A stretch of DNA of 64,000 nucleotides from Candidatus Komeilibacteria bacterium (lineage in GTDB: Bacteria > Patescibacteriota > Patescibacteriia > UBA1558): NCBI GenBank assembly GCA_048538275.1, contig JBLYPW010000002.1, forward strand, positions 103,927 to 167,926. The letters are read 5' to 3'. The position numbers were made by a program, and so were the translations under genes. Of this stretch, positions 6,656 to 61,547 are shown one piece after another; the stretch's first letter is position 1; each line of letters starts with the position of its first letter. A model generated the notes under the pieces. It searched no databases, was not told the DNA's origin, and saw only the letters and a program-made list of their open reading frames with translations.

Positions 6656-7156
6656 TTAAATTCTTTCAAATTCGGCAGTTTCTAATTCGGCTAAATAAAG
6701 TTCTAAACGTAGGGCATTGAGATGAAAGGGTTGGTAAGAAGCAACTGGAGATTCTTTTACCAAATACCACTGATTGTCACGTTTGAGAAAGATAGCCGTT
6801 CCATTTTGTACGTGCCTAATCTTATCATTGCTAAAATCATAGAGAATGTTAGGCATAGTAATGGGGACGGTCACAATCATAATTTGTTCATTGGCCTCTG
6901 TCTGTAAATAATTCATATTGCCATTATGCGCCAGTTGTAAAAGTTTATCAGCATTTTCTTGTCGCCAAGCATTTATGAGTATTTGTCCAGAATTAGTTTG
7001 CAGTGCGGCTAGATCTCTGTTTATGCAGGTCACTAAGGGAAAATTAGATTTGTCTAGCCAATCATCGTTGGCGTTATGCAAGCGCTCCCAAAGTAGAGTT
7101 AGTGATTCTTCTGATAAGATCAATTGACCAGTAATATAATCATATCCATATTTCAT
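6656..7156 (-). CDS. hypothetical protein
   Basis: 166-aa ORF with no recognisable motif. Confidence 0.4.
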   Translation of the reverse strand: MKYGYDYITGQLILSEESLTLLWERLHNANDDWLDKSNFPLVTCINRDLAALQTNSGQILINAWRQENADKLLQLAHNGNMNYLQTEANEQIMIVTVPITMPNILYDFSNDKIRHVQNGTAIFLKRDNQWYLVKESPVASYQPFHLNALRLELYLAELETAEFERI

Positions 7157-8313: not shown

Positions 8314-9603
8314 ATGAAACAATTCTGTTCCAATTTAGCGGGTCAATTTATTGGCCAAACAGTCACCCTCAAGGCTTGGGTGGCTAATTTTCGTAGTAGC
8401 GGTAAAATCTATTTTTTGGAGCTGCGTGATGGTTATGGTTATATACAAGCAATAGCTTCGCAGGGTGACGTAGATGAAGCATCTTGGCGTGCTCTGGGAG
8501 AGCTTAGTCTGGAAACGTCGGTTATTGTGGAAGGAGAAGTTGCCAAGCATCCCAAGAAAGATGCATATGAACTTCATTTGACTAGAGTGTCCATTGTGCA
8601 AAAAGCTGATGAATATCCGATTAGCAAAAAAGAGCATGGCATTGAATTTTTATTGGATCATCGGCATTTGTGGTTGCGTTCGTCTCGCCAGGTGGCTATT
8701 CAAAAAATACGCAATACAGTTATCAATGCCATTTATCAGTATTTAAATGATAATGGTTTTATTAAGATTGATTCGCCTATTTTGACGCCAACTGCCTGTG
8801 AAGGCACCACAGAGCTATTTGCTTTGGATTATTTTGATCAGCGTCAAGCTTATTTGTCCCAATCCGGCCAATTATATTTGGAAGCGGCTATTGCTGCACA
8901 TAGTCGCGTATTTGATTTTGGTCCGGTGTTTAGAGCGGAAAAATCTAAAACCAGACGGCATTTGACCGAGTTTTGGATGATGGACGCGGAAATGGCTTGG
9001 TTTGATCAAGAGGAAAATATGAAATTACAAGAAGAATTAATCAGCTATATCGTGGCTCAGGTATTGGAAAAAAATCAAATTGAATTAAATATTTTAGAAC
9101 GTAATCAAGAACCTTTAAAAAAAATAAAGTCACCTTTTATTCGGATGACGCACGCAGAGGTAGTAGTCAAGCTTAATAAATTAGGTAGTAATATTAAGCC
9201 CAATGAGGATTTGGGTGGCGATGACGAGACTTTACTTACCGCTGATGCGCAGGTGCCAATATTTGTTACTGATTGGCCGGCCGAAATAAAGGCTTTTTAC
9301 ATGAAGCGCGATAAGGCTGATAAATTGGCTTTATGTGATGATATGATTGCGCCGGAAGGTTTTGGTGAGATTATCGGCGGCAGTCAAAGAGAAGATGATT
9401 ATGACACTTTATTAAAACGTATAAAAGATCATAAATTACCGGTCAAGGATTTTCAGTGGTATTTGGATTTACGTAAGTATGGCAGCGTGCCTCATTCTGG
9501 ATTTGGGATTGGTTTAGAACGTTTGGTGGGTTGGCTATGCGGCACGAAACATATTAGAGAAACCATTCCTTTCCCACGGTTGATTAATAGATTGGAGCCT
9601 TAG
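8314..9603 (+). CDS. asnS: asparaginyl-tRNA synthetase (class IIb)
   Basis: GPVFRAEKSKTRRHLTEFWMMDAEMAW motif 2; C-terminal GFGIGLERL motif 3. Confidence 0.8.
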   Translation: MKQFCSNLAGQFIGQTVTLKAWVANFRSSGKIYFLELRDGYGYIQAIASQGDVDEASWRALGELSLETSVIVEGEVAKHPKKDAYELHLTRVSIVQKADEYPISKKEHGIEFLLDHRHLWLRSSRQVAIQKIRNTVINAIYQYLNDNGFIKIDSPILTPTACEGTTELFALDYFDQRQAYLSQSGQLYLEAAIAAHSRVFDFGPVFRAEKSKTRRHLTEFWMMDAEMAWFDQEENMKLQEELISYIVAQVLEKNQIELNILERNQEPLKKIKSPFIRMTHAEVVVKLNKLGSNIKPNEDLGGDDETLLTADAQVPIFVTDWPAEIKAFYMKRDKADKLALCDDMIAPEGFGEIIGGSQREDDYDTLLKRIKDHKLPVKDFQWYLDLRKYGSVPHSGFGIGLERLVGWLCGTKHIRETIPFPRLINRLEP

Positions 9604-17546: not shown

Positions 17547-18425
17547 ATGTCTTTTTTTATTTTTTTATTAATAGTTGGGCTATTGATATTAGCTTGGTTG
17601 GTAGTAAGGAAGCTACCGCAGTTGAATATGATACAGCCTCACTCTACGCCGCGCGCTAAACAAGAAAAGCGTAAAAAACAAATGTATGAAGATAGATTAA
17701 AACGCCAATTAAGCCAAGTCAGTAGAGGAGCTAGTAAATGGATACAACCTTTATTAGAGGCTACGCAGAAATTATTTAAGGTTTCTTATCAGAAATTACG
17801 TAGCAAGGAGGAAGAATATAGGCATAAATTATTGCATCAAGATTTTCAAGATAGTGTAGATAAGGAACAAAAGATTGCAGCTCTTTTAACTGATGCGCAG
17901 GAAAGTTTTGCAGATAAAAATTGGAATGAAGCGGAAAGTAGATTGATAGATATTCTAAAAATGGACCCTCATAATATTGATGCTTATAATAAATTGGGCA
18001 GACTTTACTGGGAAAAGAAAGATTATGATCATGCAATAGAAATTTATGAATATTTAGCCAAATTGTCAGCTCACCCTGATGTTTATAATAATTTAGCAGC
18101 TATAGCCGAGGAAAGAGGTAATCTCGGTGAAGCTGAAAAAAACTATTTATCAGCTTTGCAATTAAATAATCAAGCCAGCGAATCTCATTATCATTTAGCG
18201 GAGCTATATGGTCAGCAGGATGATTGGGATAAAGCTCAGTTAGAGGCTAAGGCGGCGGCGAAATATAGAGCTAATAACCCTAAATATCTTGACTTTTTAT
18301 TGCGAGCGAGTATAATAGTTCAAGATAAAAAAACCGCTTTAGATACTTTGCAAAAGATGCAAGAGGTGAATCCGGAGAATAAAAAACTAGCGGTTTATCA
18401 AGAGCAAATAGATCAATTATCATAA
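17547..18425 (+). CDS. TPR-repeat protein with N-terminal TM helix
   Basis: hydrophobic N-terminus; repeated AYNKLG/YNNLA TPR-like helices. Confidence 0.6.
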   Translation: MSFFIFLLIVGLLILAWLVVRKLPQLNMIQPHSTPRAKQEKRKKQMYEDRLKRQLSQVSRGASKWIQPLLEATQKLFKVSYQKLRSKEEEYRHKLLHQDFQDSVDKEQKIAALLTDAQESFADKNWNEAESRLIDILKMDPHNIDAYNKLGRLYWEKKDYDHAIEIYEYLAKLSAHPDVYNNLAAIAEERGNLGEAEKNYLSALQLNNQASESHYHLAELYGQQDDWDKAQLEAKAAAKYRANNPKYLDFLLRASIIVQDKKTALDTLQKMQEVNPENKKLAVYQEQIDQLS

Positions 18426-18429
18426 ATAT

Positions 18430-18505
18430 GCCGTTGTAGCTCAGCTGGTAGAGCAACTCCATGGTAAGGAGTAGGTCCGCAGTTCAAGTCTGCGCAACGG
18501 CTCCA
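18430..18505 (+). tRNA. tRNA-Thr (anticodon GGT), CCA encoded
   Basis: manual cloverleaf: acceptor GCCGTTG/CAACGGC; anticodon stem ACTCC/GGAGT; loop AUGGUAA; T-loop TTCAAGT. Confidence 0.85.
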
Positions 18506-18536
18506 CTTTAAAGTCAGGCTTTATCGCCAGCTAGTA

Positions 18537-18698
18537 AATAGTGGCCTTGTAAAATCTACCAGGAGTGGCGCGCCTTGGATAGTAGTACATAGAGAGGAGT
18601 TTATTACTAGACAAGCTGCTTATAAAAGGGAACGTCAAATAAAATCGTATAAAGGTGGTACAGCATTTAAGAGATTGTTTAAAAATAAAATAGATTAA
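18537..18698 (+). pseudogene. 3' fragment of a GIY-YIG nuclease gene (duplicate copy A)
   Basis: near-identical to 18914-19075 (2 mismatches); in-frame TAG TAA immediately upstream; no start codon. Confidence 0.8.
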
Positions 18699-18704
18699 GT
18701 ACAT

Positions 18705-18815
18705 GGGTCGGTACCGAAGCGGTCCCCGCCACATTAGCGTTGCTAATGCACGGGGCGGGCAACCGGGCAGACTGCCACCGCCCTTGGCGGGGTGCCGCCA
18801 CAGGCGGCATAAATC
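18705..18815 (+). other. pseudo-tRNA-Tyr 5' portion (positions 1-40) interrupted by two 35-nt GC-rich hairpin modules
   Basis: 18705-18724 identical to tRNA-Tyr nt 1-20; insert 18725-18759; tRNA-like CAACCGGGCAGACTG; insert 18775-18809; then TAAATC. Confidence 0.7.
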
Positions 18816-18823
18816 TATTAATT

Positions 18824-19075
18824 ATGTATCTGGTTTATATATTACAAAGTAAGCTTTCTGGGCGTTATTACATTGGTCAGACAATTAATTTGGATAAGAG
18901 ATTAAAGAGACACAATAGTGGCCTTGTAAAATCTACCAGGAGTGGCGCGCCTTGGATAGTAGTACATAGAGAGGAGTTTATTACTAGACAAGCTGCTTAT
19001 AAAAGGGAACGTCAAATAAAATCGTATAAAGGCGGTGCAGCATTTAAGAGATTGTTTAAAAATAAAATAGATTAA
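18824..19075 (+). CDS. GIY-YIG nuclease family protein (small, YhbQ/UPF0213-like)
   Basis: MYLVYILQS...GRYYIGQT...KRLKRHNSG...REEF..R.AAYKRERQIKSYKG is the characteristic GIY-YIG pattern. Confidence 0.85.
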   Translation: MYLVYILQSKLSGRYYIGQTINLDKRLKRHNSGLVKSTRSGAPWIVVHREEFITRQAAYKRERQIKSYKGGAAFKRLFKNKID

Positions 19076-19081
19076 GTACAT

Positions 19082-19167
19082 GGGTCGGTACCGAAGCGGT
19101 CAACCGGGGCAGACTGTAAATCTGCTGGCTTTCGCCTTCGTAGGTTCGAATCCTACCCGGCCCACCA
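19082..19167 (+). tRNA. tRNA-Tyr (anticodon GTA), long variable arm, CCA encoded
   Basis: anticodon stem GCAGA/TCTGC with loop CUGUAAA; T-arm GGTTCGAATCC; acceptor GGGTCGG/CCGGCCC. Confidence 0.85.
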
Positions 19168-19214
19168 CGCCCGTGGAGTCAATTGATGAATTTACTCTAC
19201 GGGCGTGTTTTTTA
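19168..19214 (+). terminator. intrinsic terminator after tRNA-Tyr
   Basis: cgcccgtggagt...actctacgggcg stem followed by tgtttttt. Confidence 0.6.
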
Positions 19215-19274
19215 TAGATTATAAATAAAGCCCACCCGGAAGTGGACTATAATTTTTCATTTTGTTGTAAACTT

Positions 19275-24482: not shown

Positions 24483-24556
24483 GGGGGCGTCGTATAGTGG
24501 TAGTACAGGGGTCTCCAAAACCTCTAGCGTGGGTTCGATTCCTACCGCCCCTGCCA
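24483..24556 (+). tRNA. tRNA-Trp (anticodon CCA)
   Basis: acceptor GGGGGCG/CGCCCCT; loop CUCCAAA; T-loop TTCGATT; short D-loop. Confidence 0.8.
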
Positions 24557-24689: not shown

Positions 24690-25020
24690 CGTTAAGGTCT
24701 TTTTTAATTGGTCAGGAAACCCCGCACGAGCCCCCAGCGAGTGCGGGGATGAATGACTCCTCTCTTAACACGAACCGAAGGGTCGTGTTAAGCTATAACC
24801 ATGAGAATCCGAGCTCTAAATCATTCCACCTATCAACACCAATATCATATAGTTTGGGGAACAAAGTATCGCCGGAAATTTTTGAAAGAGTATGTTAAGC
24901 CAGAAGGATACACCGCAAACAACTACGTTCGGATTCTAATGAAACGAAAGGAAACCCCGCCTGAAAAAAGACTACCTTTGGGTAGTCTTTTTGAGCGCGG
25001 GGAGGATGTCATTTGTTTTA
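24690..25020 (+). mobile_element. decayed IS200/IS605-like remnant: two GGAAACCCCGC...GCGGGG subterminal-type hairpins bracketing a truncated Y1-transposase (TnpA) N-terminal fragment
   Basis: hairpins at about 24700-24746 and 24952-25009 share the 12-mer AGGAAACCCCGC; ORF 24801-25025 begins HSTYQHQYHIVWGTKYRRKFL like IS200 TnpA but lacks the HuH region. Confidence 0.55.
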
Positions 25021-25025
25021 GATAG
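24801..25025 (+). pseudogene. truncated IS200/IS605 TnpA (Y1 transposase) fragment
   Basis: YHIVWGTKYRRKFL matches the TnpA N-terminal beta-strand; the HuH motif is absent. Confidence 0.5.
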
Positions 25026-25108: not shown

Positions 25109-26992
25109 ATGAATAAAAGGATAAGTTGTATTATTTTAGCTTGCGATTCACACATTACTAAAGGTTTTTCTATTTTTCACAGTTTGTTATCTGTTGTACG
25201 ACAGGATTATCTAAATGTTGAGATTATTATTGTGGAAAATAGTCATAGTAAACCTTCTTATGTAAAAGAGTTAAAGAGGAAGTTCTGCAAGTGGAATGAA
25301 TCAAATAAGGGTAAAATGACTTTAAAATTTATTAATAATACAAAGTCGCTAAGTCGTGGGGCGGCGCGTAATATTGGATTAGAATTTGCAACTGGGAATA
25401 TTATAATTTTTTTAGATGATGATACTATTCTTTTGGGACGAAATTATTTTTCTAAAATAATTAAGTTGTCTAGTAGATATGATTATGGCTATGGGGCGAA
25501 TCGTTATTGGACTTCGAATAAAATGTTTCAGAAAAAACATAGGATATTGTTAAAATTGTTTGAAAATAATGAAATTATCCAGTTAAGATCAATGGTTTCT
25601 TCTCCGTCAGTGGAGGGAAGACAGGATGATGATTCTGCTCATTATTTGAGTAAAACATTTATTGGTAATTTTGGGTTTGTTAAAGCTAATTTAATTAAAA
25701 AGGTGGGAGGATTTCCTAATTTTAATGGGTATGGATATGAAGATGATTTTTTGATGTTTAAATTATATAAATCGTATGCAAAAATGGTCATATTAGACGA
25801 CATGGAAGTTATCCATGTAAATCATAAGGTGTGTGAAAGCGGCAGGGAAAATTTTATACTTTATTTTAAAGAGTTAGTTCGTAGCGGATTTTATGGGTTT
25901 AATATTATTAAAACGCTTATTAGCGGCCACAAAAGAGAAGAAGTGTTGGAGCCTTTAAAAGTTTTACATTTTGATAGTCGGGTGGAAAGTATGTTTGAAA
26001 AATATAGGAGCTTACTACCTATCAATTTATATAATTCTACTATTAAACAGAAACAGTACTGTAAAGATAATTATATTTTGTCAAAGTTACGGTTTGTACA
26101 ACTATTATTTAAATTGGAGAATTCTCCTAGTATTGATGATTTTATTTCTAATAGTAGTGCAGATTTTGATAATTTGGCTAATATCATATCTATTGCCTTA
26201 GATTTTGATTTCATCAAGATGAATGGTGATTCTAAAATTACTTATACTTTTGGTTTTCAGTACACAAGTTTATTCTTAGCTAATTCACACGTTGATCCAA
26301 AATTAATTCCAAAAAATTCATTGAATCAATTTCCGTGTAATATGCAATCAAGGCGAAGGCGGTACAATTTTATTAAAGAGAGATATCCATATGTTGAATA
26401 CTTAAAGTTTGCTATAATAGGGGATGATGATTTTTTAAGTTTGGAATTTATTAATGATTATTGGGCGTGGCCAGTGATTATTGAAAAGGATAGTAGGATA
26501 ACTAGATTGTTAAGGAGTGTAAGTGATAGGTTTATGGTTTATGATCTGGATGTTGCAGATAATGACTCATTGAAAAAATTATCTAAAGTTCAAACCTTTA
26601 TTACAGATCCTCCTTATACTCTTGATGGGGCACTGGCTTTTATTTTCTTCGGTTTGTCTATGTTGGTTAATAGTGATGATATAAAAGAGTTTTACGTTAT
26701 TTTAAATCCAGCTATGATGGGAAGGAAGCTATTTCGTTTGCAGAAAATTCTTGCCAATGCTAATATTATTTTAGTAGATGTTATTAATAACTTTAGTCAA
26801 TATAATTTACCTACTAATTATGTTGAGAATAAACGCGCAGGAAAGTTTTCTGTTCAACATGGTATTAAGAAGAATAGTATTAAAACAAGCTCCTCATCAA
26901 ATATGTACATTTTTTCGACAGTTACGCCTGACTTGCAAGAGGTGAGAAGAAATATTAATTATAATAAAATGTATAATCATTATGATAACTAA
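25109..26992 (+). CDS. bifunctional-looking protein: N-terminal GT2 glycosyltransferase fused to a C-terminal class-I methyltransferase/aminopropyltransferase-like domain (GDDD...DPPY)
   Basis: GT2 motifs: VVENSHS, FLDDDTIL (DxD), GYGYEDDFLMF. C-terminal motifs: IIGDDDFLSLEF, MVYDLDVAD, FITDPPYT. Markedly AT-richer than flanking genes. Confidence 0.65.
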   Translation: MNKRISCIILACDSHITKGFSIFHSLLSVVRQDYLNVEIIIVENSHSKPSYVKELKRKFCKWNESNKGKMTLKFINNTKSLSRGAARNIGLEFATGNIIIFLDDDTILLGRNYFSKIIKLSSRYDYGYGANRYWTSNKMFQKKHRILLKLFENNEIIQLRSMVSSPSVEGRQDDDSAHYLSKTFIGNFGFVKANLIKKVGGFPNFNGYGYEDDFLMFKLYKSYAKMVILDDMEVIHVNHKVCESGRENFILYFKELVRSGFYGFNIIKTLISGHKREEVLEPLKVLHFDSRVESMFEKYRSLLPINLYNSTIKQKQYCKDNYILSKLRFVQLLFKLENSPSIDDFISNSSADFDNLANIISIALDFDFIKMNGDSKITYTFGFQYTSLFLANSHVDPKLIPKNSLNQFPCNMQSRRRRYNFIKERYPYVEYLKFAIIGDDDFLSLEFINDYWAWPVIIEKDSRITRLLRSVSDRFMVYDLDVADNDSLKKLSKVQTFITDPPYTLDGALAFIFFGLSMLVNSDDIKEFYVILNPAMMGRKLFRLQKILANANIILVDVINNFSQYNLPTNYVENKRAGKFSVQHGIKKNSIKTSSSSNMYIFSTVTPDLQEVRRNINYNKMYNHYDN

Positions 26993-28370
26993 ACATAAGC
27001 TTAAGCCAAATGATATTACTTTCTTAAATGAAAGTGATGTTTTATATTCTTTGGATTTTAGAGTATTGAGTGAAAATATAGACTATAAGATACCAACTAT
27101 GTGGAAATATGAAAATATATTACCATGGATACTTTCTGGTAGAAATGTTGTTGTTAATGAAAATTATACTGCCTTAGAGTATCCAAATAAAAATTCATTT
27201 GTTGTTACAAAGAAAACAAAAGATCCAAGAGTATCAATCTATGAAAGAATGTCAAAAGGATTAATGGGGGATAATATAAAAAAATTATGGGTAGCTGTGC
27301 CACATCCTGATGCTGATATTTTTTGTAAGGAAAATAAATTAAAAATTAACTATAATTATGATTCTTATCTCAAGTATAATAATAAAATCGAGCAAAAGAA
27401 ATTACTAGGTAATGCGAGCCCTAATTGGAAACTTATTTCGTCCTTTGATGAAATTAAAGGATTACAAAAAAAATATACAACAGGTTATATTAAGAGAAAG
27501 TTTGGATCGGGTGGCTATACGGTTTTTGAATTAAATAAATTGGATCATAATTTTTCTAAATTATTTAAAGAGTCATCAAATGAATGGTATTTTGAAGAGG
27601 AGGTTAAAGGAAAGGCTTATAGTATTCAATGCGTTAAGGATGGTAAAAATGTAACAGTTTTTGGATTCTCAGAACAAATTATTGAAGGACATAAGTTTTA
27701 TTCTGGTTCTAAGATTTTATCTCTTGATTTACTTAATATAAAGCTTTTTAACCAAGTTAAAAAAGCTTTAAGTAGATTTGGTGAATTTTTAGCTGACTAT
27801 AATGGTTTATTTGGCTTAGATTTTATTATTGATAAAAATAATAAAGTTTTTATTTTAGAGGCAAATATTAGGATAACTGCAGTGACAATTTCTACTTTAT
27901 TATTTAATATGGTGGGTGCAGAATCAGCTCTATTTAGGGAAGATGTAAAGAATGATAATATGGCTAAAGATGATGTGGTTCTCACATGCGAAGTTGACAA
28001 TATGAAGGACGTCCTTAGTTTTAATTCAGTTAAAGGTGTTTTAGGAATGAGCATCTATGTAGATTTTAAAAATTGCTTAGTCAACGTAAAAAGAATGGAT
28101 GATAAAGTTGCTAGAGAAATATCTGAAATTGTTAATATGATAATTAGCAATGTAGAAAAGATAGACTATCATAATTTTTGGCCGTACGGTTGGACATTGT
28201 CATTAATACTATCTAATTCACATTGCGTTATGAGTAGTTGGTATTTAGAGAAAAGAGTCTTGGTTGATGTTTTTAGTTGTAATTTAGATTATGATCAGAA
28301 ACTATTTATTAAGAAAATGTCTGATTATTTTAAGTCTAAAAATAATAAATTTAAAGTAGAATTAAGATAA
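26982..28370 (+). CDS. ATP-grasp family ligase
   Basis: C-terminal ATP-grasp signature GLFGLDFIID...NKVFILEANIR; start overlaps the upstream gene by 11 nt. Confidence 0.65.
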   Translation: MITKHKLKPNDITFLNESDVLYSLDFRVLSENIDYKIPTMWKYENILPWILSGRNVVVNENYTALEYPNKNSFVVTKKTKDPRVSIYERMSKGLMGDNIKKLWVAVPHPDADIFCKENKLKINYNYDSYLKYNNKIEQKKLLGNASPNWKLISSFDEIKGLQKKYTTGYIKRKFGSGGYTVFELNKLDHNFSKLFKESSNEWYFEEEVKGKAYSIQCVKDGKNVTVFGFSEQIIEGHKFYSGSKILSLDLLNIKLFNQVKKALSRFGEFLADYNGLFGLDFIIDKNNKVFILEANIRITAVTISTLLFNMVGAESALFREDVKNDNMAKDDVVLTCEVDNMKDVLSFNSVKGVLGMSIYVDFKNCLVNVKRMDDKVAREISEIVNMIISNVEKIDYHNFWPYGWTLSLILSNSHCVMSSWYLEKRVLVDVFSCNLDYDQKLFIKKMSDYFKSKNNKFKVELR

Positions 28371-28375
28371 ATAGT

Positions 28376-29407
28376 TTGGAAATGAATAATTATATTGTAA
28401 TTCCGCCTTATTATAAGGGTACTGCATTTCAGGAGATTGTAATACATATGCTTGTTGCGGTAAAAAAAACAAAGTACAATATAAAATTTATCGGTCTACT
28501 AGAACCAATAGATAATACCTTATCAGGGTTTTTGTTGGATGATGAGATTTATACCAAGTATCAATCTTTTTTAATTTCTGATTTAATGAATTTGAAGACA
28601 CCTGCTAAAATATTATTTTTGGATTTTTTTAATTTAGGTTTCGATTTATTACGATATTTACATGAACAAACTAATGCGAATGTTAAATATGGATCGTTAA
28701 TTCATGGAGGGTCATTTTTTGATGAAGACATATATAATATGCCGTGGTTGAGTAACTTTGAGAATGCGTGGGCAGATTTATATGATACGATGTATATAGC
28801 TTCAAATTATGGTAAGAATAGACTTCCGGATAGTTTCAAAGATAAGGTTAAAGTTATTCCTTGGGGGATGGATGGGTTTAGAAGTGAAGCATCAGTTAAT
28901 AAAATTAATGATGTTATTTTTCCACATAGATTGAGCCCAGATAAGGGGGTTGAGGATTTTATAATGATTGTTGACTCTTTGCCGCAAGTAAAGTTCATCG
29001 TGACTGTGCCTCAAAAAAAGAGTGTAATTAGCAAAAATAAATATTATAATGTCCTAAAAAAATATACTAATGTAAAATTTATTTTCAATGAGAGTATGGA
29101 AAATCACAATATAACATTATCCTCTGCAAGAGTAGTTTTGAGTTGTGCTAAACAAGAAATTTTTGGCTACTCTATTGCTAAGTCTGTTGCGTCAGGGTGT
29201 ATCCCAGTATTACCAAAAGATCAATGTTATCCAGAATTTTATCAAAGGAAATATTTATACAAGAATATACAAGATGCTATTTCTATGATAGAGGATGTTA
29301 TTATTGAGTCGAAAAGTAATACTTTATCAAATGAGGGCAATAGTAAATGTATTTATGATTTTGAAACATTTTCATTTAAGAACCATTTTGATGATTTTTT
29401 TGGTTAA
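28376..29407 (+). CDS. glycosyltransferase group 1 (GT4-like)
   Basis: C-terminal E-x7-E-like region QEIFGYSIAKSVASGCIPV; FPHRLSPDKG. Confidence 0.6.
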   Translation: MEMNNYIVIPPYYKGTAFQEIVIHMLVAVKKTKYNIKFIGLLEPIDNTLSGFLLDDEIYTKYQSFLISDLMNLKTPAKILFLDFFNLGFDLLRYLHEQTNANVKYGSLIHGGSFFDEDIYNMPWLSNFENAWADLYDTMYIASNYGKNRLPDSFKDKVKVIPWGMDGFRSEASVNKINDVIFPHRLSPDKGVEDFIMIVDSLPQVKFIVTVPQKKSVISKNKYYNVLKKYTNVKFIFNESMENHNITLSSARVVLSCAKQEIFGYSIAKSVASGCIPVLPKDQCYPEFYQRKYLYKNIQDAISMIEDVIIESKSNTLSNEGNSKCIYDFETFSFKNHFDDFFG

Positions 29408-29441
29408 AAAAGAGAGTATATATGATATATACTCTCTTTAG
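29408..29441. terminator. bidirectional terminator between the convergent GT1 and GGCT genes
   Basis: aaagagagtatatat-ga-tatatactctcttt palindrome with A/T runs on both sides. Confidence 0.6.
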
Positions 29442-29854
29442 TAATTAACATCGATTTGGGATACAATTTTTTTTATGTTCTTACATTCTCCGATAATTAC
29501 CGATGATTTAGCAACAAATACTATACCTTTGGATTTTTTACCATCAACTTCATAAAAAGTTGTCTCTTTCGGTTCATATAGAGGGCCTTCAAATTCATTA
29601 AGGCGTGATTTTAGTACGGCAAGTGAATTATTAGATACTGTGAACTGAGTTAACCATGCACTAATTTGCAGACCATTATCATCTAATATCACAATTGGGT
29701 ATTTAAAGATATTATTTGGCTCTGTTTCATCCGTCACTTCATACAAGTACCCCTTGATAAAACCAAGAGTTCTTTTTGTGGGTGATGTTTTGAGAATTTT
29801 TTTAATAAGTTTAACATTTTTTAATGATCCGTAAAATATAAATGAACAATTCAT
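29438..29854 (-). CDS. gamma-glutamyl cyclotransferase-like (AIG2/GGCT family) protein
   Basis: N-terminal FIFYGSLKN (YGSL/YGTL motif); LGFIKGYLYEV. Confidence 0.6.
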   Translation of the reverse strand: MNCSFIFYGSLKNVKLIKKILKTSPTKRTLGFIKGYLYEVTDETEPNNIFKYPIVILDDNGLQISAWLTQFTVSNNSLAVLKSRLNEFEGPLYEPKETTFYEVDGKKSKGIVFVAKSSVIIGECKNIKKIVSQIDVNY

Positions 29855-30068
29855 TTTACCTCCTTTTTTGTTTGATTTTATATATTAACATAGTTTTAAT
29901 AATTGTCAATTGTAGTGTCTTTTTTTGGTTAGCTAATAAGATTATTAAGCTAGTGATGATTATTTACAGATCAGTATTCAGACTGGGTTAATAATTTTGG
30001 TATGTAAATATAATCAGTTTCTTGTTGAATTATGGTTATAACTTCATCTACGACTGACTGCCATGAAA

Positions 30069-57926: not shown

Positions 57927-60065
57927 ATGAAAAAAATTTATTTGATTTCACTCATAACAATCGTAGTAGGTTTAATATTTTATACACTACCTCATTGGTT
58001 TAGTTTTTTGTGGGGTTTTCAACTTTTATTATTGCCCATGTTAGCTGGTGTGTTGATGGTATTAGTTCAGAATGAAGATAGGACTTATAGGTTTTTACCA
58101 AAACTTATTACTGGGTCATTGATAGCAAGTTTTGTTTATTTAATTTTATTGCAAGTAATCGAATATGATCATGATGGTTATTTTGTTTTTTTTGGTTTTT
58201 TAATGCCAGCATTATTTTTAACAGGTGTTAGTATATTCGGTGGTTTAGTAGGAATTGTTATTAAAGGTACCGCTTTGTTATTGAATATAAAATCCGAATC
58301 GAAATTTATTTTAATAGTTAAGAAAATATTTGGAGGATTATTTTTAAGTATAGATTCGATTTTAACATTGATAGCTATTGTATTTTTTTTGATAGTAGCG
58401 TTTTATCCTTCAAGCTCTTGGCTCAACATGGTTATGGTTGATTTTAGAGTAATAGATGTAGTTGGATTTTTTAATTATTATTTGTTGCTTATCTCTGTAT
58501 TATTTATTTTTACAACACCGTTGATATTTGTCACTAATTTAGGTTTAATTTTACTGTTTCCTCTAAAAAGATATTTGAATAAAAAATTATCTTCTCGTTT
58601 AATCATTTATTTTTTTATCTTTTTAGCCGTTTTTCTTTTATCGTCTTCTTATTTGAATTCTAAATTTGAATTAAAGAAAGCAGAAATGAAAAAAAATAAT
58701 ACTAAAGAACATTTTGATATTAAAGATTTTAACAAAATAAATGTTTCGCGTTTTGTTGAATTTGATGAGATAAAAATTATTCAAGGCGATAAATTTGATA
58801 TAGTGGTTAAGGGTAGTCAATATGACCAAATAGGACTTGATATTGAAAAAAACGATGATAAAACATTAGTAATAAAAAGATCAGAGCTTGAAACGTATTA
58901 TAATACTGAAACTTGGACAATGGAGAATGAAGATTCTTTGTTTCCTGCTGGTACTAAGCATTTGGTTATAGAAATAATTATGCCCGATATTGAAAAGATT
59001 GTTTTAGATGGAGGTCATATAGAACTGGTAGATTTTGATGTTGATAATGTTGACATCGAACTCAATAAGCGATTTACTGATATCAAAGGTAATATCATAG
59101 TTGAAGACACATTAAAACTAGATGCTAAAGGAGGCGTAATTAATTTGTCTGGTTCGGCTAAAAATTTAATCATAAATTCAGGCGACTGTTGGATTGAAAT
59201 GGATAAATTTATAGTTCAAGATGCCATTATTGATGCAGTAAATACCAGCAGATTGAATGTGAATGTAAGTAATAATATGGAAATAGAAATAAACAAAAAT
59301 TCTGGTATCACAAATCATAATAATAGTGAAGTTTGGGATTCAGAAATTCAGGAGCTAGCGTTTAAACTCAAATCAAGTATTTCTGGTATAAATATCAGTT
59401 TTCCGAAGGATTCATCTCTTTGGTGGAATGATGAGGATGGCTATAGTATTTTAGTTCCTGGAAACGAATCAATTGAAGTTGTTGGGGATGATGGTGTTAG
59501 GTCTGATAATTTTGCTGAAAGTAGTTTTGTCGCTGAGTTGTTGGATATTACTAAACAAGTGTTATCTACTAGGGGATTTATTTTAAATGAGAGTAATTCA
59601 TCTGCAAATATAATGGATAAGAAGTTTTATGACTATGTTCGAGCATATAAAAATGATGATAAGTTGTGTGTAGTTAGGGTTAATCCTGATTATAGCTCTT
59701 ATGGTTGTACTGATAATATGTTGATGTGTAATGTGGTAGAGATAACCTGTGGTAATGATTTAGCTGGAAGCCAGGTTCAACAAAGACCGTTTTTAGAAGC
59801 ACTTGAACTGCAAAACAAAGAAACAATTGTACAAATCATAAAACAAATTGGAGATTTTTATAAAGTTGCTATTAGCTATCGTCGTACTGGTTCAACAGGA
59901 GTTGTTAAAAAAGAGGATGGTGGTTTACGACTTTTATATACGAGTCAAGAAGATCCACATTGTGAAATAGTAGAAACAGAACGTATTCCAAGTAATGTAC
60001 TTGAGGGTTTTGAAATAAATGGCTGTTGGACTGAAAATGGGTATAGAAAATTTAGTGGAAATTAA
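57927..60065 (+). CDS. large hypothetical membrane protein (multi-TM N-terminus, about 470-aa extracytoplasmic C-terminal domain)
   Basis: 712-aa ORF, very AT-rich; about 8 hydrophobic helices in the first 240 aa. Confidence 0.5.
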   Translation: MKKIYLISLITIVVGLIFYTLPHWFSFLWGFQLLLLPMLAGVLMVLVQNEDRTYRFLPKLITGSLIASFVYLILLQVIEYDHDGYFVFFGFLMPALFLTGVSIFGGLVGIVIKGTALLLNIKSESKFILIVKKIFGGLFLSIDSILTLIAIVFFLIVAFYPSSSWLNMVMVDFRVIDVVGFFNYYLLLISVLFIFTTPLIFVTNLGLILLFPLKRYLNKKLSSRLIIYFFIFLAVFLLSSSYLNSKFELKKAEMKKNNTKEHFDIKDFNKINVSRFVEFDEIKIIQGDKFDIVVKGSQYDQIGLDIEKNDDKTLVIKRSELETYYNTETWTMENEDSLFPAGTKHLVIEIIMPDIEKIVLDGGHIELVDFDVDNVDIELNKRFTDIKGNIIVEDTLKLDAKGGVINLSGSAKNLIINSGDCWIEMDKFIVQDAIIDAVNTSRLNVNVSNNMEIEINKNSGITNHNNSEVWDSEIQELAFKLKSSISGINISFPKDSSLWWNDEDGYSILVPGNESIEVVGDDGVRSDNFAESSFVAELLDITKQVLSTRGFILNESNSSANIMDKKFYDYVRAYKNDDKLCVVRVNPDYSSYGCTDNMLMCNVVEITCGNDLAGSQVQQRPFLEALELQNKETIVQIIKQIGDFYKVAISYRRTGSTGVVKKEDGGLRLLYTSQEDPHCEIVETERIPSNVLEGFEINGCWTENGYRKFSGN

Positions 60066-60162
60066 TTTAAATTGTATCCAAGTTTAGTAAAATGGAGAAT
60101 GGCTGTTATTCTAGAGACTTGATTACAGTTCGAATGTTAGCCTTGAAGAGTTTAACAAAAGA

Positions 60163-60192
60163 GTTCTAAAGTTGTCCCGGTATGCGAGCCAA
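60163..60192 (+). repeat. 30-bp direct repeat copy 1 (GTTCTAAAGTTGTCCCGGTATGCGAGCCAA)
   Basis: identical copy at 61449-61478; the two copies flank the Fic gene. Confidence 0.85.
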
Positions 60193-60213
60193 TTTTTTAA
60201 GGGATTTTTAGCA

Positions 60214-60335
60214 GATAATTGCAGATTGCAGCGATTGAGGTTATAGTAATGCAGCAATAAATTGTTGTTTTTATTACTAAATTTGATGATTTATATATAT
60301 TATGCAGCAATAACGTATTTGAAATGCAGCAATTA
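60214..60335 (+). promoter_or_regulatory. array of TGCAGCAAT-type repeats upstream of the Fic gene (candidate operator array)
   Basis: ATGCAGCAATAA at 60249-60260 and 60302-60313; ATGCAGCAATTA at 60324-60335; TTGCAGATTGCAGCGATTG at 60219-60237. Confidence 0.5.
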
Positions 60336-60352
60336 AGTGCTATAATAAAAGC

Positions 60353-61399
60353 ATGAATAAGAGGCAAAAAAGACAACAAAAAATAATTACTTTTATAAAG
60401 AGTAAAGATAAGGTATCTAACTCTGAAATTTTAGATTTCCTTGGTGGTACAATTGAAAGAACGACATTGCAAAGAGATTTAAATTCTTTACAAAAACAAG
60501 GTTTTATTCTGAAAACTGGGCTTGGTCGGAGTACAGTTTATACCATTGCAGATATAAATAGAATATCCTTACCAGTTGATATTAAAGAATATTTCAATAT
60601 CCCATATTTGAATAGAGATATAAAAGAGACTTTCAATTTTGATATATTTAATATTTTGAATGACGATATTTTTACAGTAGAAGAAAAAGATAAGTTAGAG
60701 AAGCTACAGGCAGATTTCGTTAAAAATTTTTCCAAATATGATAGTCAAACGATTATTAATAAGGAGTTTGAGAGAATAATGATTGAATTTTCTTGGAAGT
60801 CGTCGGTTATTGAAGGAAACACATATTCACTTTTAGGTACCGAAGCTTTGATAAAAAATAATATTATTGGAAAAGGTAAGACTGAAAAAGAAACCCAGAT
60901 GATCATTAATCATAAGGACGCTTTTAACGAGGCAATTCAAAATAAAAATAAATTTATAAAATTACATTCTTCCAGTATTGAATATATTCATTCAGTTTTG
61001 ATTAAGAAATTAGGAATTTCTAAGAATATAAGAAATGAAGGTGTTGGAATTACTGGTACAAAATATAGACCCCTGGATAATAGTTATCAAATTAATGAGG
61101 CAATGCAGAAAATGATAGACTTGATTAATAAGAAAGAATCGTTTTTTGAAAAAGCTTTTTTAGTATTGATTTTTATTTCCTATATTCAGATTTTTGAGGA
61201 TGGGAATAAAAGAACTTCTCGCATGATTTCTAATGCTATTTTATTAGCACACAACTCAATACCACTTTCTTATAGAATTGTTGATGTTGAGGAATACAAA
61301 AAAGCTGTCATACTATTTTATGAAATAAATAATATTTCTTATTTTAAACAAATATTTATTGAGCAGTTTGAAGATGCGGTTAATAATTATTTTAGGTAG
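60353..61399 (+). CDS. Fic/DOC-family protein with N-terminal winged-HTH and a degenerate core motif (QIFEDGNKR instead of HPFx[DE]GNGR)
   Basis: ...YIQIFEDGNKRTSRMISNAILL aligns to the Fic motif with H to Q and G to K substitutions. Confidence 0.65.
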   Translation: MNKRQKRQQKIITFIKSKDKVSNSEILDFLGGTIERTTLQRDLNSLQKQGFILKTGLGRSTVYTIADINRISLPVDIKEYFNIPYLNRDIKETFNFDIFNILNDDIFTVEEKDKLEKLQADFVKNFSKYDSQTIINKEFERIMIEFSWKSSVIEGNTYSLLGTEALIKNNIIGKGKTEKETQMIINHKDAFNEAIQNKNKFIKLHSSSIEYIHSVLIKKLGISKNIRNEGVGITGTKYRPLDNSYQINEAMQKMIDLINKKESFFEKAFLVLIFISYIQIFEDGNKRTSRMISNAILLAHNSIPLSYRIVDVEEYKKAVILFYEINNISYFKQIFIEQFEDAVNNYFR

Positions 61400-61448
61400 T
61401 ATTTTTTATAAGAACATTGCCATCTAATTGTTGTTTGTGGTTAAAAAA

Positions 61449-61478
61449 GTTCTAAAGTTGTCCCGGTATGCGAGCCAA
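61449..61478 (+). repeat. 30-bp direct repeat copy 2
   Basis: identical to 60163-60192. Confidence 0.85.
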
Positions 61479-61547
61479 AAGACCATTCATGATAATAAGT
61501 GGTTTTTTTGTTTTGACTTTTATTTAAGAACATAAGATAATAAGACC

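Follow-up and report, generated by a model that had tools for sequence, protein, structure and literature searches.

A single-domain GIY-YIG nuclease gene and paired hairpins in interrupted tRNA copies: a candidate selfish element of tRNA genes

In the window, by which we mean the whole 64-kb stretch of DNA analyzed, a GIY-YIG nuclease gene lies in one and a half copies between tRNA-Thr and an intact tRNA-Tyr, the truncated copy being joined to a tRNA-Tyr sequence that is broken by two hairpins and then stops. The question raised by this locus is what would tie a nuclease gene to an interrupted copy of an essential tRNA gene. Our preferred answer, to which we give slightly better than even odds (a probability of about 0.55), is a selfish nuclease-plus-hairpin element in tRNA genes, present here as 1.5 cassette copies and belonging to a widespread family.

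Architecture of the tRNA-Thr/tRNA-Tyr locus

The features of the locus are collected in table 1. The two 188-nt direct repeats of the original prediction (18537-18724 and 18914-19101) were reproduced with their two mismatches, T/C at 18656/19033 and A/G at 18660/19037, and identity ends abruptly on both sides. Each repeat comprises the 3' part of the GIY-YIG ORF and nt 1-20 of tRNA-Tyr, as had been described. Read from the sequence, the repeat starts exactly at codon 31 of the ORF, so that the upstream copy retains codons 31-83 and the stop codon; this relic has no in-frame start, has stop codons directly upstream and differs from 18914-19075 by the same two mismatches. The 3' end of the repeat is the exact point at which the first hairpin insert begins (18725). 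The 20-mer formed by tRNA-Tyr nt 1-20 occurs twice in the 64 kb, at 18705 and 19082, and the 3' 28-mer of the gene once.

Table 1. Features of the cassette locus and its tRNA neighbors (window coordinates).
Feature	Position	Strand	Basis or remark
Promoter-like site, TTATCA-17-TATCAT	18395..18423	+	Consensus match only; 1 found vs 2.6 expected in shuffles
tRNA-Thr(GGT), upstream neighbor	18430..18505	+	ARAGORN; Rfam tRNA, 66 bits
31-nt spacer between tRNA-Thr and truncated older cassette copy	18506..18536	.	Outside repeat
3' relic of older GIY-YIG ORF, codons 31-83 + stop (pseudogene fragment)	18537..18698	+	Repeat copy 1
GTACAT spacer, ORF stop to tRNA nt 1	18699..18704	+	Repeated at 19076-19081
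Pseudo-tRNA-Tyr nt 1-20, same as intact gene	18705..18724	+	Closes 188-nt repeat
D-loop hairpin module, CCCGCC ... GGCGGG stem, inner hairpin in loop	18725..18759	+	DNA fold -10.2 kcal/mol, z -3.1
Pseudo-tRNA-Tyr D-stem 3' strand and anticodon stem 5' strand to nt 34	18760..18774	+	One-base difference vs intact gene
Hairpin A of conserved pair, CCACCGCC-CTT-GGCGGGG, 7 bp, bulged A	18775..18792	+
Hairpin B of conserved pair, TGCCGCC-ACA-GGCGGCA, 7 bp	18793..18809	+
Pseudo-tRNA-Tyr resumes (TAAATCT, canonical nt 35-41), then stops	18810..18816	+
7-nt leader ATTAATT ahead of ATG	18817..18823	+	Hairpin B end 14 nt from start codon
Intact gene for 83-aa single-domain GIY-YIG nuclease, Slx1/UPF0213-like	18824..19075	+	Pfam, homologues, PDB sequence matches, structure model
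GTACAT spacer	19076..19081	+
Intact tRNA-Tyr(GTA), functional copy	19082..19167	+	ARAGORN, Rfam
Terminator-like inverted repeat then T-run, tRNA operon end	19166..19214	+	Sequence

The intact tRNA-Tyr with its terminator-like repeat and the tRNA-Thr directly upstream were likewise recovered where the original prediction had placed them. The ORF coordinates held, with a length of 83 aa plus a stop codon instead of 84 aa. The upstream tRNA-Tyr copy is interrupted in the D-loop and directly after canonical anticodon nt 34 by two 35-nt GC-rich hairpin inserts (18725-18759 and 18775-18809), as proposed, and each insert is unique within the window. The tRNA-Tyr-like character of this copy was borne out, with one qualification: the piece between the inserts, CAACCGGGCAGACTG, differs from AACCGGGGCAGACTG in the intact tRNA by a one-base shift or deletion. 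That the inserts are structured was also supported, the DNA fold of both being better than that of shuffled sequence (z = -3.1 and -3.65, respectively); the RNA fold of the pseudo-tRNA was no better than shuffles (z -1.56). A search of the 64-kb window for the exact 35-mers, allowing up to three mismatches, found no dispersed copies. The promoter-like site upstream of tRNA-Thr could be the start of a tRNA operon that contains the cassette.

Neither ARAGORN nor Rfam called a tRNA at 18705-18816, a segment that lacks the variable arm, T arm and 3' acceptor strand and in which no complete cloverleaf was recognized. Rfam covariance models found no intron there either, and over 17.5-20 kb, with E values up to 1 allowed, the scan yielded the two tRNAs and chance matches only, with no intron or known motif. 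The intron-like alternative of the original prediction was not sustained. Patescibacteria tRNAs often carry group I introns at position 35/36 (PMC13011429), but at this locus no ribozyme was detected, the upstream copy stops at nt 41 and has neither its 3' half nor a 3' exon, only about 90 non-coding nt are left for a ribozyme, and the downstream tRNA-Tyr is complete on its own. An integrase-type island remnant would suit the fact that tRNA genes are common integration sites, yet no recombinase is apparent among the neighboring ORFs, which match housekeeping genes of syntenic relatives (TIM, aldolase, TPR, ZIP, NAD-binding reductase, Fpg, Fur and rubredoxin), and the duplicated part is the 5' rather than the 3' part of the tRNA. 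We regard an island remnant or an intron as exceedingly improbable.

Comparison with related tRNA-Thr/tRNA-Tyr loci revealed empty sites. At four syntenic Komeilibacteria-like loci (L081, L082, L084 and L085), tRNA-Thr and tRNA-Tyr are 18-49 nt apart without a cassette, TIM-aldolase-TPR genes lie upstream of tRNA-Thr, a ZIP gene follows downstream in three of the four, and the terminator stands at the same position as in the window. We read the segment 18506-19081 as a lineage-specific insertion between tRNA-Thr and tRNA-Tyr. The TPR orthologues of these relatives are about 46-51% identical to that of the window, at which distance gain and loss both fit; the closest TPR orthologue among 5.8 billion proteins is 55% identical.

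A nuclease family at tRNA genes

The protein matches the Pfam GIY-YIG domain (PF01541, E = 3.9e-16) over residues 1-67 and ends 16 residues past this catalytic domain, the linker and C-terminal DNA-binding domain being absent. Y16, R26, H30 and E62 are invariant across 44 homologues. The best PDB sequence matches are the UPF0213/bacterial Slx1-like entries 1zg2 and 1ywl (E = 1e-14 and 7.5e-12), and the structure model, a single compact domain (pLDDT 90), has as its best fold matches Slx1 nuclease domains (TM 0.65-0.70, 29-38% identity). By sequence and predicted fold the protein thus appears closer to Slx1/UPF0213 than to I-TevI. As the structure titles also indicate, Slx1 selects its DNA substrates by structure, cutting branched and stem-loop forms. 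We know of no described function, hairpin partner or tRNA linkage for UPF0213 proteins.

The original prediction had appealed to the GIY-YIG proteins as classic homing endonucleases. An enzyme of the I-TevI/Seg type would cut double-stranded tRNA-Tyr and have its gene copied in by double-strand-break repair, leaving the tRNA fragment and hairpins as repair scars. The GIY-YIG domain is in keeping with this, as are the presence and absence of the cassette at a syntenic site, the location of T4 SegB in a tRNA cluster, and a match to the group I intron endonuclease model TIGR01453, which, like the other NCBIfam matches, is sub-threshold (24.6 bits vs a cut-off of 56). We nevertheless consider homing improbable, given a protein reduced to its catalytic domain and nearest to Slx1/UPF0213, and given that the supposed scars are a conserved, covarying module found at fixed loop positions in many phyla and also far from nuclease genes.

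Homologues of the nuclease gene share its position. Their ORFs end -38 to +60 nt from a same-strand tRNA in 57 of 80 homologous loci from many phyla (0.32 of 80 expected by chance), and the nearest-neighbor ORF shares the tRNA isotype in 54 of 71 cases. The family has members in Patescibacteria, Ignavibacteria, Bacteroidota, Omnitrophota and other phyla. Most of the tRNA-adjacent ORFs are preceded by a 5' partial copy of the adjoining tRNA: among 59 such loci, the 250 nt before the ATG match a tRNA over 14 nt or more in 40 (control windows, 0), and a match of at least 20 nt at 100% identity precedes the ATG in 24. As a rule it is the 5' part of the tRNA that is duplicated, the cassette measures about 0.35 kb, and one uninterrupted tRNA copy is always retained. 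Homologous D-loop hairpins follow nt 20 at L007, L008, L010, L031, L039 and others. Hairpins stand on both sides of the gene at L004, L008, L064 and L073, and on the 5' side only in the window (18725-18809). Mirrored forms, two-sided forms and tandem arrays, some of them perfect, occur among the loci, and some loci contain decaying relic copies and truncated ORFs. The layout is a conserved architecture, not random decay, and the nuclease-associated insertion at a tRNA gene that the original prediction proposed is upheld both by the empty sites and by its recurrence at tRNA genes elsewhere. We found no description of this nuclease/hairpin/tRNA arrangement in the literature on GIY-YIG proteins, tRNA genes, partial tRNAs, Patescibacteria, UPF0213 or YhbQ; the closest papers, on Ssn nucleases (PMC11893778) and on group I introns in Patescibacteria tRNAs (PMC13011429), do not cover it.

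A trivial origin, whether through misassembly or through a single tandem duplication filled in with random insertions, has to be weighed since the source is a metagenome-assembled genome and the repeat is 99% identical and near short-read length. It is very improbable: each junction is unique, two positions distinguish the copies, the same succession of ORF relic, pseudo-tRNA, ORF and tRNA is found at L006, layered pseudo-tRNA copies are present at L007, L009, L017 and L037, and the "filler" at 18775-18809 matches the conserved hairpin-pair model R1 with 55.8 bits (E = 1.4e-10).

The hairpin module and its insertion sites

Both inserts are copies of a conserved module that occurs beside homologous nucleases in many phyla and also alone, a point that goes beyond the original prediction. 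The consensus of the pair, CCACCGCC..GGCGGGG / TNCCGCC..GGCGGN'A, is located precisely within a tRNA loop. In the alignment of hairpin pairs 97% of cells are paired and 7 of 14 pairs show compensatory changes, whereas G-U pairs are nearly absent (2/361 cells). Conservation of the stem sequence across phyla suggests sequence-specific recognition of a near-palindrome.

Strong matches to the hairpin model (at least 30 bits) were sought across 524 kb. All 55 strong matches on the ORF strand, which come from the 80 homologue loci and the window, lie within about 720 nt of a nuclease ORF, and every minus-strand match of at least 30 bits overlaps a better-scoring ORF-strand match at the same place. 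The flanks match the adjacent intact tRNA in 51 of the 55, the insertion points of these being in the anticodon loop (33), the D arm (12) or the T-loop (6). In a metagenome sample anchored on the hairpins, an ORF start lies 5-41 nt downstream in 32 of 90 matches and the flanks match the adjacent tRNA in 42, while for 38 of the 90 pairs the interval from -700 to +900 nt contains no nuclease ORF on the same strand. Solo pairs occupy further G|AA sites, many of them loops of other hairpins and some far from nuclease genes, and modules are also found on the downstream side of tRNAs, in antisense orientation to pseudo-tRNAs and, where there is no ORF, in loops of unrelated hairpins. Of 152 unique insertions, 124 have G as the last base of the left flank, and the right flank is (A/T)AA; 40% of insertions have a closing stem, vs 16% of random points. 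The clean insertions at L088, a solo site, and at L105 show no target-site duplication. The dispersal of the solo modules is MITE-like and may extend into coding N-termini. Across 2.9 million viral contigs no hairpin pair occurs, which gives no sign of a phage vehicle; phage records contained two weak matches to the nuclease protein.

Because the module lies on the ORF and tRNA strand, within the 5' leader, a role at the RNA level is conceivable. The 5' part of the interrupted tRNA and the hairpins would then give the nuclease mRNA, within a tRNA operon, a structured leader or a tRNA-like RNA, serving as a processing signal, 5' stabilizer or protein partner, and the duplication would exist to supply this RNA. 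Such a role would account for the strand of all 55 strong ORF-strand matches, for the proximity of the hairpins to the ATG (at most 40 nt in 52 of 81 loci, 10 nt in the closest), for the compensatory base changes and for the placement of the ORF and two tRNAs in a segment that opens with a promoter-like site and closes with a terminator. A further hint of an RNA link is the fusion, in bacteria, of Slx1-like domains to TrmH, a tRNA methyltransferase (PMC1564403). Several features of the module speak against it, however: the near absence of G-U pairs, the conservation of the stem sequence itself, and the occurrence of modules 3' of tRNAs, in tandem arrays of perfect copies, on the strand opposite to pseudo-tRNAs and in unrelated, ORF-less hairpin loops. 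Ssn enzymes, moreover, do not bind RNA (PMC11893778). We therefore hold an RNA-level element to be doubtful, and favor action of the selfish element on DNA.

Known systems and a proposed mechanism

GIY-YIG enzymes hydrolyze DNA and do not rejoin it, so insertion must depend on host repair or replication. Among known systems, the best functional analogy appears to be Ssn with its NTS repeats. SsnA (cd10448) is a single-domain GIY-YIG nuclease of about 90 aa that binds its cognate hairpins as single-stranded DNA and whose gene has these hairpins at its flanks (Chenal et al. 2025, PMC11893778). Enzymes of the Ssn family cleave single-stranded DNA beside the hairpin and leave double-stranded DNA and RNA uncut. 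The cassette likewise encodes a single-domain protein (here 83 aa) with no DNA-binding domain, its gene is directly flanked by GC-rich hairpin repeats, further hairpin copies are dispersed in genomes, and the hairpin-gene-hairpin layout of the four two-sided loci resembles an insertion sequence. There is also a hint, at L085, that different nuclease subfamilies have different hairpins, as in Ssn. Unlike Ssn, the cassette has as its module a pair of hairpins, placed exactly within the loops of tRNA segments that have been duplicated, and its gene directly adjoins an intact tRNA; among solved structures, the protein is nearest to UPF0213/Slx1. The Ssn paper never mentions tRNA (PMC11893778). The Ssn SRM consensus, taken as HGTCWYN(0-2)YYVSBRHN(0-5)WNVSBRGN(0-2)RNCYNB, had two matches in 422 kb, none within 500 nt of an ORF, and did not match the cassette hairpins. 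A canonical-looking SRM was observed at L033, with no nuclease gene nearby.

The closest sequence and fold matches, UPF0213/Slx1, differ in that Slx1 has a RING domain and needs Slx4. With homing endonucleases (I-TevI, Seg) the cassette shares a GIY-YIG core in which Tyr, Arg and Glu are conserved, a target gene that is both conserved and essential, and patchy presence; it differs in having no DNA-binding domain, in not residing in an intron, in a target regenerated by duplication rather than splicing and in its accompanying dispersed hairpin module. IS200/IS605 and REP/RAYT elements resemble it in their hairpin DNA signals, the small enzyme gene beside the hairpins, solo copies elsewhere, a short sequence preference at the insertion point and the lack of a target-site duplication (here at L088 and L105). 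They use a Y1/HUH transposase with a covalent intermediate, whereas the only ORF in the cassette is that of the hydrolytic GIY-YIG enzyme, with no Y1 (HUH) transposase, and its gene-adjacent copies are accompanied by duplication of a tRNA segment. An unrelated IS200-like fragment lies 5.7 kb away. tRNA-targeting integrative elements also use an essential tRNA gene as their site and keep it intact by means of a duplicated segment that forms direct repeats, but the cassette has no integrase, is only about 0.35 kb long, usually duplicates the 5' part of the tRNA and carries hairpins inside the tRNA loops of the non-functional copy.

The analogy with Ssn could also point to a domesticated host function, such as control of recombination or transformation at tRNA loci or a decoy for tRNA-integrating elements, as Ssn/NTS modulates natural transformation in Neisseria (PMC11893778). 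Intact catalytic residues and the fidelity of ORFs to one tRNA isotype are compatible with domestication. Against it stand the patchy distribution with absence from four syntenic relatives, the decaying relics, truncated ORFs and tandem amplification, and the MITE-like dispersal of solo modules, possibly into coding N-termini. We find a non-selfish host function unlikely.

As a selfish element, the cassette unit would consist of the 83-aa GIY-YIG gene and a 5' copy of tRNA-Tyr with hairpin modules in the D-loop and anticodon loop. We infer from the Ssn/NTS analogy that the nuclease recognizes its own hairpins in single-stranded DNA. The hairpin pair may act as a miniature mobile unit with clean insertion at G|AA sites of loop-like character, and breaks at the hairpins would stimulate recombination between the tRNA-derived direct repeats. 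Such recombination would duplicate, amplify or delete cassette units and regenerate an intact tRNA, so that an essential single-copy gene could tolerate the parasite; the element would reside in tRNA genes since, with the tRNA partially duplicated, one copy stays unbroken. Most likely, the window's 1.5 copies arose by unequal recombination between the tRNA nt 1-20 repeats (5' of the first hairpin), which would have given two copies, and a later deletion of the 5' half of the older copy. Integration of the Campbell type, by a circle bearing a hairpin-interrupted tRNA, predicts forward and mirrored arrangements alike and is compatible with the data, as are unequal crossing-over and repeated insertion.

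More tentatively, the family may represent a new class of mobile DNA without transposase or integrase, in which a hairpin pair of about 35 nt, recognized by an Slx1-like single-domain GIY-YIG nuclease, inserts cleanly at loop-like G|AA sites in single-stranded form, chiefly in tRNA loops. The gene would lie beside one copy, and partial tRNA duplication would regenerate the essential target, making the tRNA sequence both landing pad and portable homology. This class would extend hairpin-directed single-stranded DNA nucleases beyond Ssn.

If the proposal is correct, a widespread family of miniature nucleases lives almost exclusively at tRNA genes, by a design that tolerates insertion into an essential single-copy gene. 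It would supply a defined, computationally derived nuclease-hairpin pair with an insertion-site rule (G|AA in loops), through which the unexplained spread of Ssn-type hairpin repeats would become experimentally approachable, and new candidate site-specific single-stranded DNA nucleases of biotechnological interest. It would also explain the partial or "interrupted" tRNA sequences and small tandem arrays beside tRNA genes that confuse the annotation of reduced genomes.

Anatomy of the window locus and empty sites in relatives

A single long direct repeat was recovered from the window by repeat search, its two 188-nt copies being 99% identical with two differences (T/C at 18656/19033 and A/G at 18660/19037) and, as the bases bordering the copies differ on both sides, having sharp ends. 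The repeat begins within the GIY-YIG ORF, at codon 31, and its upstream copy thus holds the 3' relic of a second ORF, with no start codon. Nucleotides 1-20 of tRNA-Tyr occur twice in the window and its last 28 nt once; neither ARAGORN nor Rfam made a call between tRNA-Thr and tRNA-Tyr. The original prediction, made from the sequence alone, had described the repeat, the intact tRNA-Tyr, the ORF and the two hairpin inserts, and this description matches the repeat search, the ARAGORN and Rfam calls and the sequence. We refer to the nuclease gene together with the hairpin-bearing 5' copy of tRNA-Tyr as the cassette.

Features of the tRNA-Thr/tRNA-Tyr locus in window coordinates
Feature	Position	Strand	Basis or detail
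tRNA-Thr(GGT)	18430-18505	+	ARAGORN and Rfam
Direct repeat, upstream copy	18537-18724		Repeat search
3' relic of second ORF copy	18537-18698		From repeat start
Upstream tRNA-Tyr copy, part 1	nt 1-20 of tRNA	+	Ends where D-loop hairpin begins
Upstream tRNA-Tyr copy, first insert	18725-18759	+	35-nt hairpin
Upstream tRNA-Tyr copy, between inserts		+	15 nt, reaching anticodon nt 34
Upstream tRNA-Tyr copy, second insert	18775-18809	+	35-nt block
Upstream tRNA-Tyr copy, end		+	TAAATCT, then 7 nt, then ATG of ORF
GIY-YIG ORF	18824-19075	+	83 residues; Pfam GIY-YIG E=3.9e-16
Direct repeat, downstream copy	18914-19101		Repeat search
tRNA-Tyr(GTA), intact, class II	19082-19167	+	ARAGORN and Rfam

As DNA, both 35-nt blocks form hairpins that are more stable than those of shuffled sequence, and no second copy of either was found in the 64 kb. 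A promoter-like site precedes the stretch that holds the cassette unit and both tRNAs, and a terminator follows it. The D-loop hairpin has a 5' arm (CCCCGCC, 18724-18730) whose sequence complements the 3' arm of the second insert's hairpin A (GGCGGGG, 18786-18792), and in minimum-energy folds these arms pair across 55 nt, replacing the two local hairpins; modules with the same stem could cross-pair.

Four loci reached via orthologues of the upstream TPR protein (L081, L082, L084 and L085) have TIM, aldolase and TPR genes upstream of tRNA-Thr in common with the window, and all except L085 also have its ZIP transporter gene downstream on the opposite strand. The gap between tRNA-Thr(GGT) and tRNA-Tyr(GTA) is 18 nt in L081, 21 in L084, 35 in L082 and 49 in L085, with no ORF, pseudo-tRNA or hairpins between the two tRNAs in any of them. 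This comparison of the orthologous locus, proposed with the original prediction, identifies window positions 18506-19081 (576 nt) as an insertion relative to those genomes, at about genus or family level (TPR orthologues about 46-51% identical to the window's).

The nuclease family and its hairpin pair at tRNA genes

By sequence and predicted fold the protein is assigned to the UPF0213/Slx1 type. A protein identical to it is on record from a 200-kb contig of a Candidatus Komeilibacteria (Patescibacteria) MAG. Homologues are 73-127 aa long with Y16, G18, R26, H30, E62 and K66 invariant, all of which the intact window ORF retains. Their profile matches UPF0213 proteins BH0048 (E=1e-14) and EF2693 (E=7.5e-12), then Slx1, and weakly I-TevI and UvrC. 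The AlphaFold model (pLDDT 90.3) is a single compact beta-beta-alpha-beta-alpha-alpha domain, for which the best solved matches are Slx1 nuclease domains (TM 0.65-0.70, 29-38% identity), followed by BH0048 and the I-TevI catalytic domain (TM about 0.52). A homing endonuclease, as raised in the original prediction, failed the domain test, the 83-aa protein being too short for an added DNA-binding domain.

A family scan of one genome per species, all sequences deriving from metagenome assemblies, returned 293 relatives, the best 80 loci of which were analysed as a non-random sample. Their record labels comprise Patescibacteria lineages, Ignavibacteria, Bacteroidota, Omnitrophota, KSB1, Neomarinimicrobiota, Endomicrobiales and others. 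A same-strand tRNA starts -38 to +60 nt from the ORF stop in 57 of these best 80 loci (Tyr-GTA 21, Ser 33, Gly 2, Pro 1), against a chance expectation of 0.32 in 80 from tRNA density elsewhere in those loci; in most of the others, a tRNA on the strand of the ORF lies on its 5' side and ends 2-132 nt before the ATG. An ORF and its nearest neighbour are associated with the same tRNA isotype in 54 of 71 comparisons; a cassette thus usually keeps to one tRNA and switches occasionally.

The pseudo-tRNA with hairpins is a conserved arrangement. Matches of at least 14 nt to the downstream tRNA lie within 250 nt before the ATG in 40 of the 59 loci having such a tRNA (control windows, 0), 34 of them beginning at tRNA nt 1-2, and in 24 loci at least 20 nt are 100% identical. 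The layout of family loci is that of the window: a tRNA 5' part, hairpin A (CC(A)CCGCC-loop-GGCGGGG), a directly abutting hairpin B (T-N-CCGCC-NNN-GGCGG-N'-A), about 7-15 tRNA nt, a few bases and the ATG. Such a hairpin ends at most 40 nt before the ATG in 52 of 81 loci, with a minimum of 10 nt, and many tRNA-Tyr loci carry a lone hairpin after D-loop nt 20, as does the window.

Among 27 compact examples of the hairpin pair, 97% of cells are paired and 7 of 14 pairs show both-sided changes, the second pair of hairpin B varying among G-C, C-G and U-A. The argument for DNA over RNA rests on the scarcity of G-U pairs (2 of 361 cells) in this small alignment. A covariance model built from these examples and searched against the window and 85 loci (524 kb) gave 55 strong ORF-strand matches (at least 30 bits), none of them farther than about 720 nt from a nuclease ORF; every strong minus-strand match is overlapped by a higher-scoring ORF-strand match at the same place. 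The window has one model site, the second insert (55.8 bits, matched on both strands), and the empty-site loci gave nothing above 21 bits. Flanks match the adjacent intact tRNA in 51 of the 55, with insertion points in the anticodon loop (33), D arm (12) or T-loop (6); in the anticodon loop the point follows nt 34 in Tyr-GTA and nt 35 in Ser, Pro and Thr.

Dispersed hairpin modules and other arrangements

The strict pattern CCACCGCCNNNGGCGGGGTNCCGCCNNNGGCGGNA found no match in viral contigs and at least 120 matching stretches in metagenome contigs. Among the matches listed (90 in 80 loci, for this one pattern), and with ORFs detected on the hairpin strand only, a same-strand GIY-YIG ORF starts 5-41 nt downstream in 32, lies elsewhere within -700 to +900 nt in 12 and was not found in 38, the other 8 being too near a contig end; 42 of the 90 listed have flanks that match an intact tRNA next to them. 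In the metagenome loci L088 and L139 the module is cleanly inserted in the loop of an unrelated hairpin, between CCACAGCGCGGGTTTCG and AAACCCGCGCTGTGG, and a similar insertion is seen in L105. The pair lies antisense in the T-loop of a pseudo-tRNA in L121 (4307-4341) and L149 (minus strand, about 6800-6834), beside intact minus-strand tRNA-Pro-CGG and tRNA-Leu-GAG, respectively, indicating that the module can occupy either strand of a tRNA gene. Strand is consistent beside the nuclease gene, and solo modules can be antisense to the pseudo-tRNA.

Of 152 unique insertions, 124 have G as the last base of the left flank, and the right flank has A at position 2 in 120 and at position 3 in 122. Stems of 4 bp or more that close no farther than 5 nt from the insertion point accompany 40% of them, versus 16% of random points. 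Based on these statistics and the solo copies, the pair behaves like a MITE: it is dispersed, its target is loop-like with the junction between G and AA, and no target-site duplication accompanies it. Solo pairs in L110 (about 337-371) and L150 (about 721-755) possibly lie just inside coding 5' ends with lysine-rich N-termini; as a 35-nt insert shifts the frame, either these genes start elsewhere or the insertion is otherwise tolerated.

A mirrored order of tRNA, ORF and pseudo-tRNA occurs in eight family loci (L011, L043, L044, L047, L060, L069, L074 and L075), where the D arm, anticodon loop or T arm of the pseudo-tRNA carries or is replaced by CCCCGCC..GGCGGGG hairpins. In a two-sided form (L004, L008 and L073), a 5' fragment with hairpins, the ORF, the intact tRNA and a 3' fragment with hairpins follow one another, the hairpins of both fragments occupying the same anticodon position. 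L006 has an ORF relic upstream of the pseudo-tRNA as in the window, and L007, L009 and L017 have extra pseudo-tRNA layers between ORF and tRNA. Local amplification was found in L067 (159-nt period) and on a 1-Mb Uhrbacteria contig (L027, 3365-4425), where 12.3 perfect copies of an 86-nt unit directly follow tRNA-Tyr, each comprising the tRNA-Tyr 3' end, terminator, a variable-arm fragment and a TCCCGCC-ATC-GGCGGGA hairpin.

Locus L027 also bears a pseudo-tRNA-Thr with a hairpin (2776-2850). In L017 (2324-2358) and L058 (342-395), where the nuclease gene goes with tRNA-Tyr, hairpin pairs sit in the anticodon loop of a partial tRNA-Thr(TGT); modules in neighbouring tRNAs may therefore share a single nuclease gene.

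Elsewhere in the window, a 74-aa ORF (24801-25025, + strand) lies just after tRNA-Trp (24483-24556). Its residues 10-35 match the N-terminal part of Y1 transposases of the IS200-like type (PF01797, E=7e-5, at the cut-off), and it is probably what remains of a transposase, here too at a tRNA gene. Acquired surface-polysaccharide regions may account for two low-GC stretches (26001-30000 and 58001-62000; 0.28-0.30 versus about 0.38), the first of which lies after a 627-aa ORF (25109-26992) that carries both a BpsA_C-like domain and one of glycosyltransferase family 2.

Known systems and a proposed history

We found no description of GIY-YIG genes with hairpin-interrupted tRNA duplications in the open-access literature. 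Group I introns at 35/36 are enriched in Patescibacteria tRNAs (PMC13011429); the intron-like alternative of the original prediction failed both the ribozyme and exon tests for a group I intron. An integrase island failed the recombinase and polarity tests, and IS200/IS605 the enzyme test. The closest working analogy is Ssn/NTS. The 94-aa Ssn enzymes consist of a single GIY-YIG domain, bind their cognate hairpin repeat as ssDNA and cut a few nt 5' of it, and their genes, flanked by cognate repeats, resemble an insertion sequence (PMC11893778). The Ssn paper (PMC11893778) makes no mention of tRNA, and the SRM consensus does not match the cassette hairpins. A match to the published SRM/NTS consensus (TGTCATTCCCGCGAAGGCGGGGACCCGT) was seen in family locus L033 (1318-1345), intergenic and with no GIY-YIG ORF within about 1 kb.

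Beyond the anatomy, conservation, strand consistency beside the nuclease gene, loop-site rule, local amplification and absence from four syntenic relatives, which are established, we propose that the nuclease would recognise its own hairpins when the DNA is single-stranded. In the window and in 63 of the best 80 loci of 293, the top strand is the richer in G, a bias confounded with gene orientation; with the same confounding, this strand would be the lagging-strand template. Breaks at hairpins would provoke recombination among the tRNA-derived direct repeats, and the survivors would be only those products keeping one uninterrupted tRNA, which would account for the intact neighbour beside every interrupted copy. 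Exchange 5' of the first hairpin would yield the order pseudo-tRNA, ORF and tRNA, and exchange 3' of the last hairpin the mirrored form. The 188-nt repeat of the window stops exactly at tRNA nt 20, the start of the D-loop hairpin. The simplest path to the window's state would start with an unequal exchange in which tRNA nt 1-20 of the pseudo-copy recombined with those of the intact gene, creating a second cassette unit. A deletion that began just past tRNA-Thr and reached into codon 30 of the older ORF would have come next, and the two substitutions would have accumulated since.

The empty-site relative L085 has, away from its Thr-Tyr site, a gene of another GIY-YIG subfamily (8540-8879; PF01541, E=3e-14), preceded by a tRNA-like 5' part with a D-loop hairpin, TCCAGCTGC..GCAGCTGGA (TCCAGCTGCTCGCGAGCAGCTGGA), unrelated in sequence to that of the window. 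A second nuclease-hairpin pair therefore shows the same architecture, in a genome with an empty Thr-Tyr site, suggesting that nuclease and hairpin co-vary.
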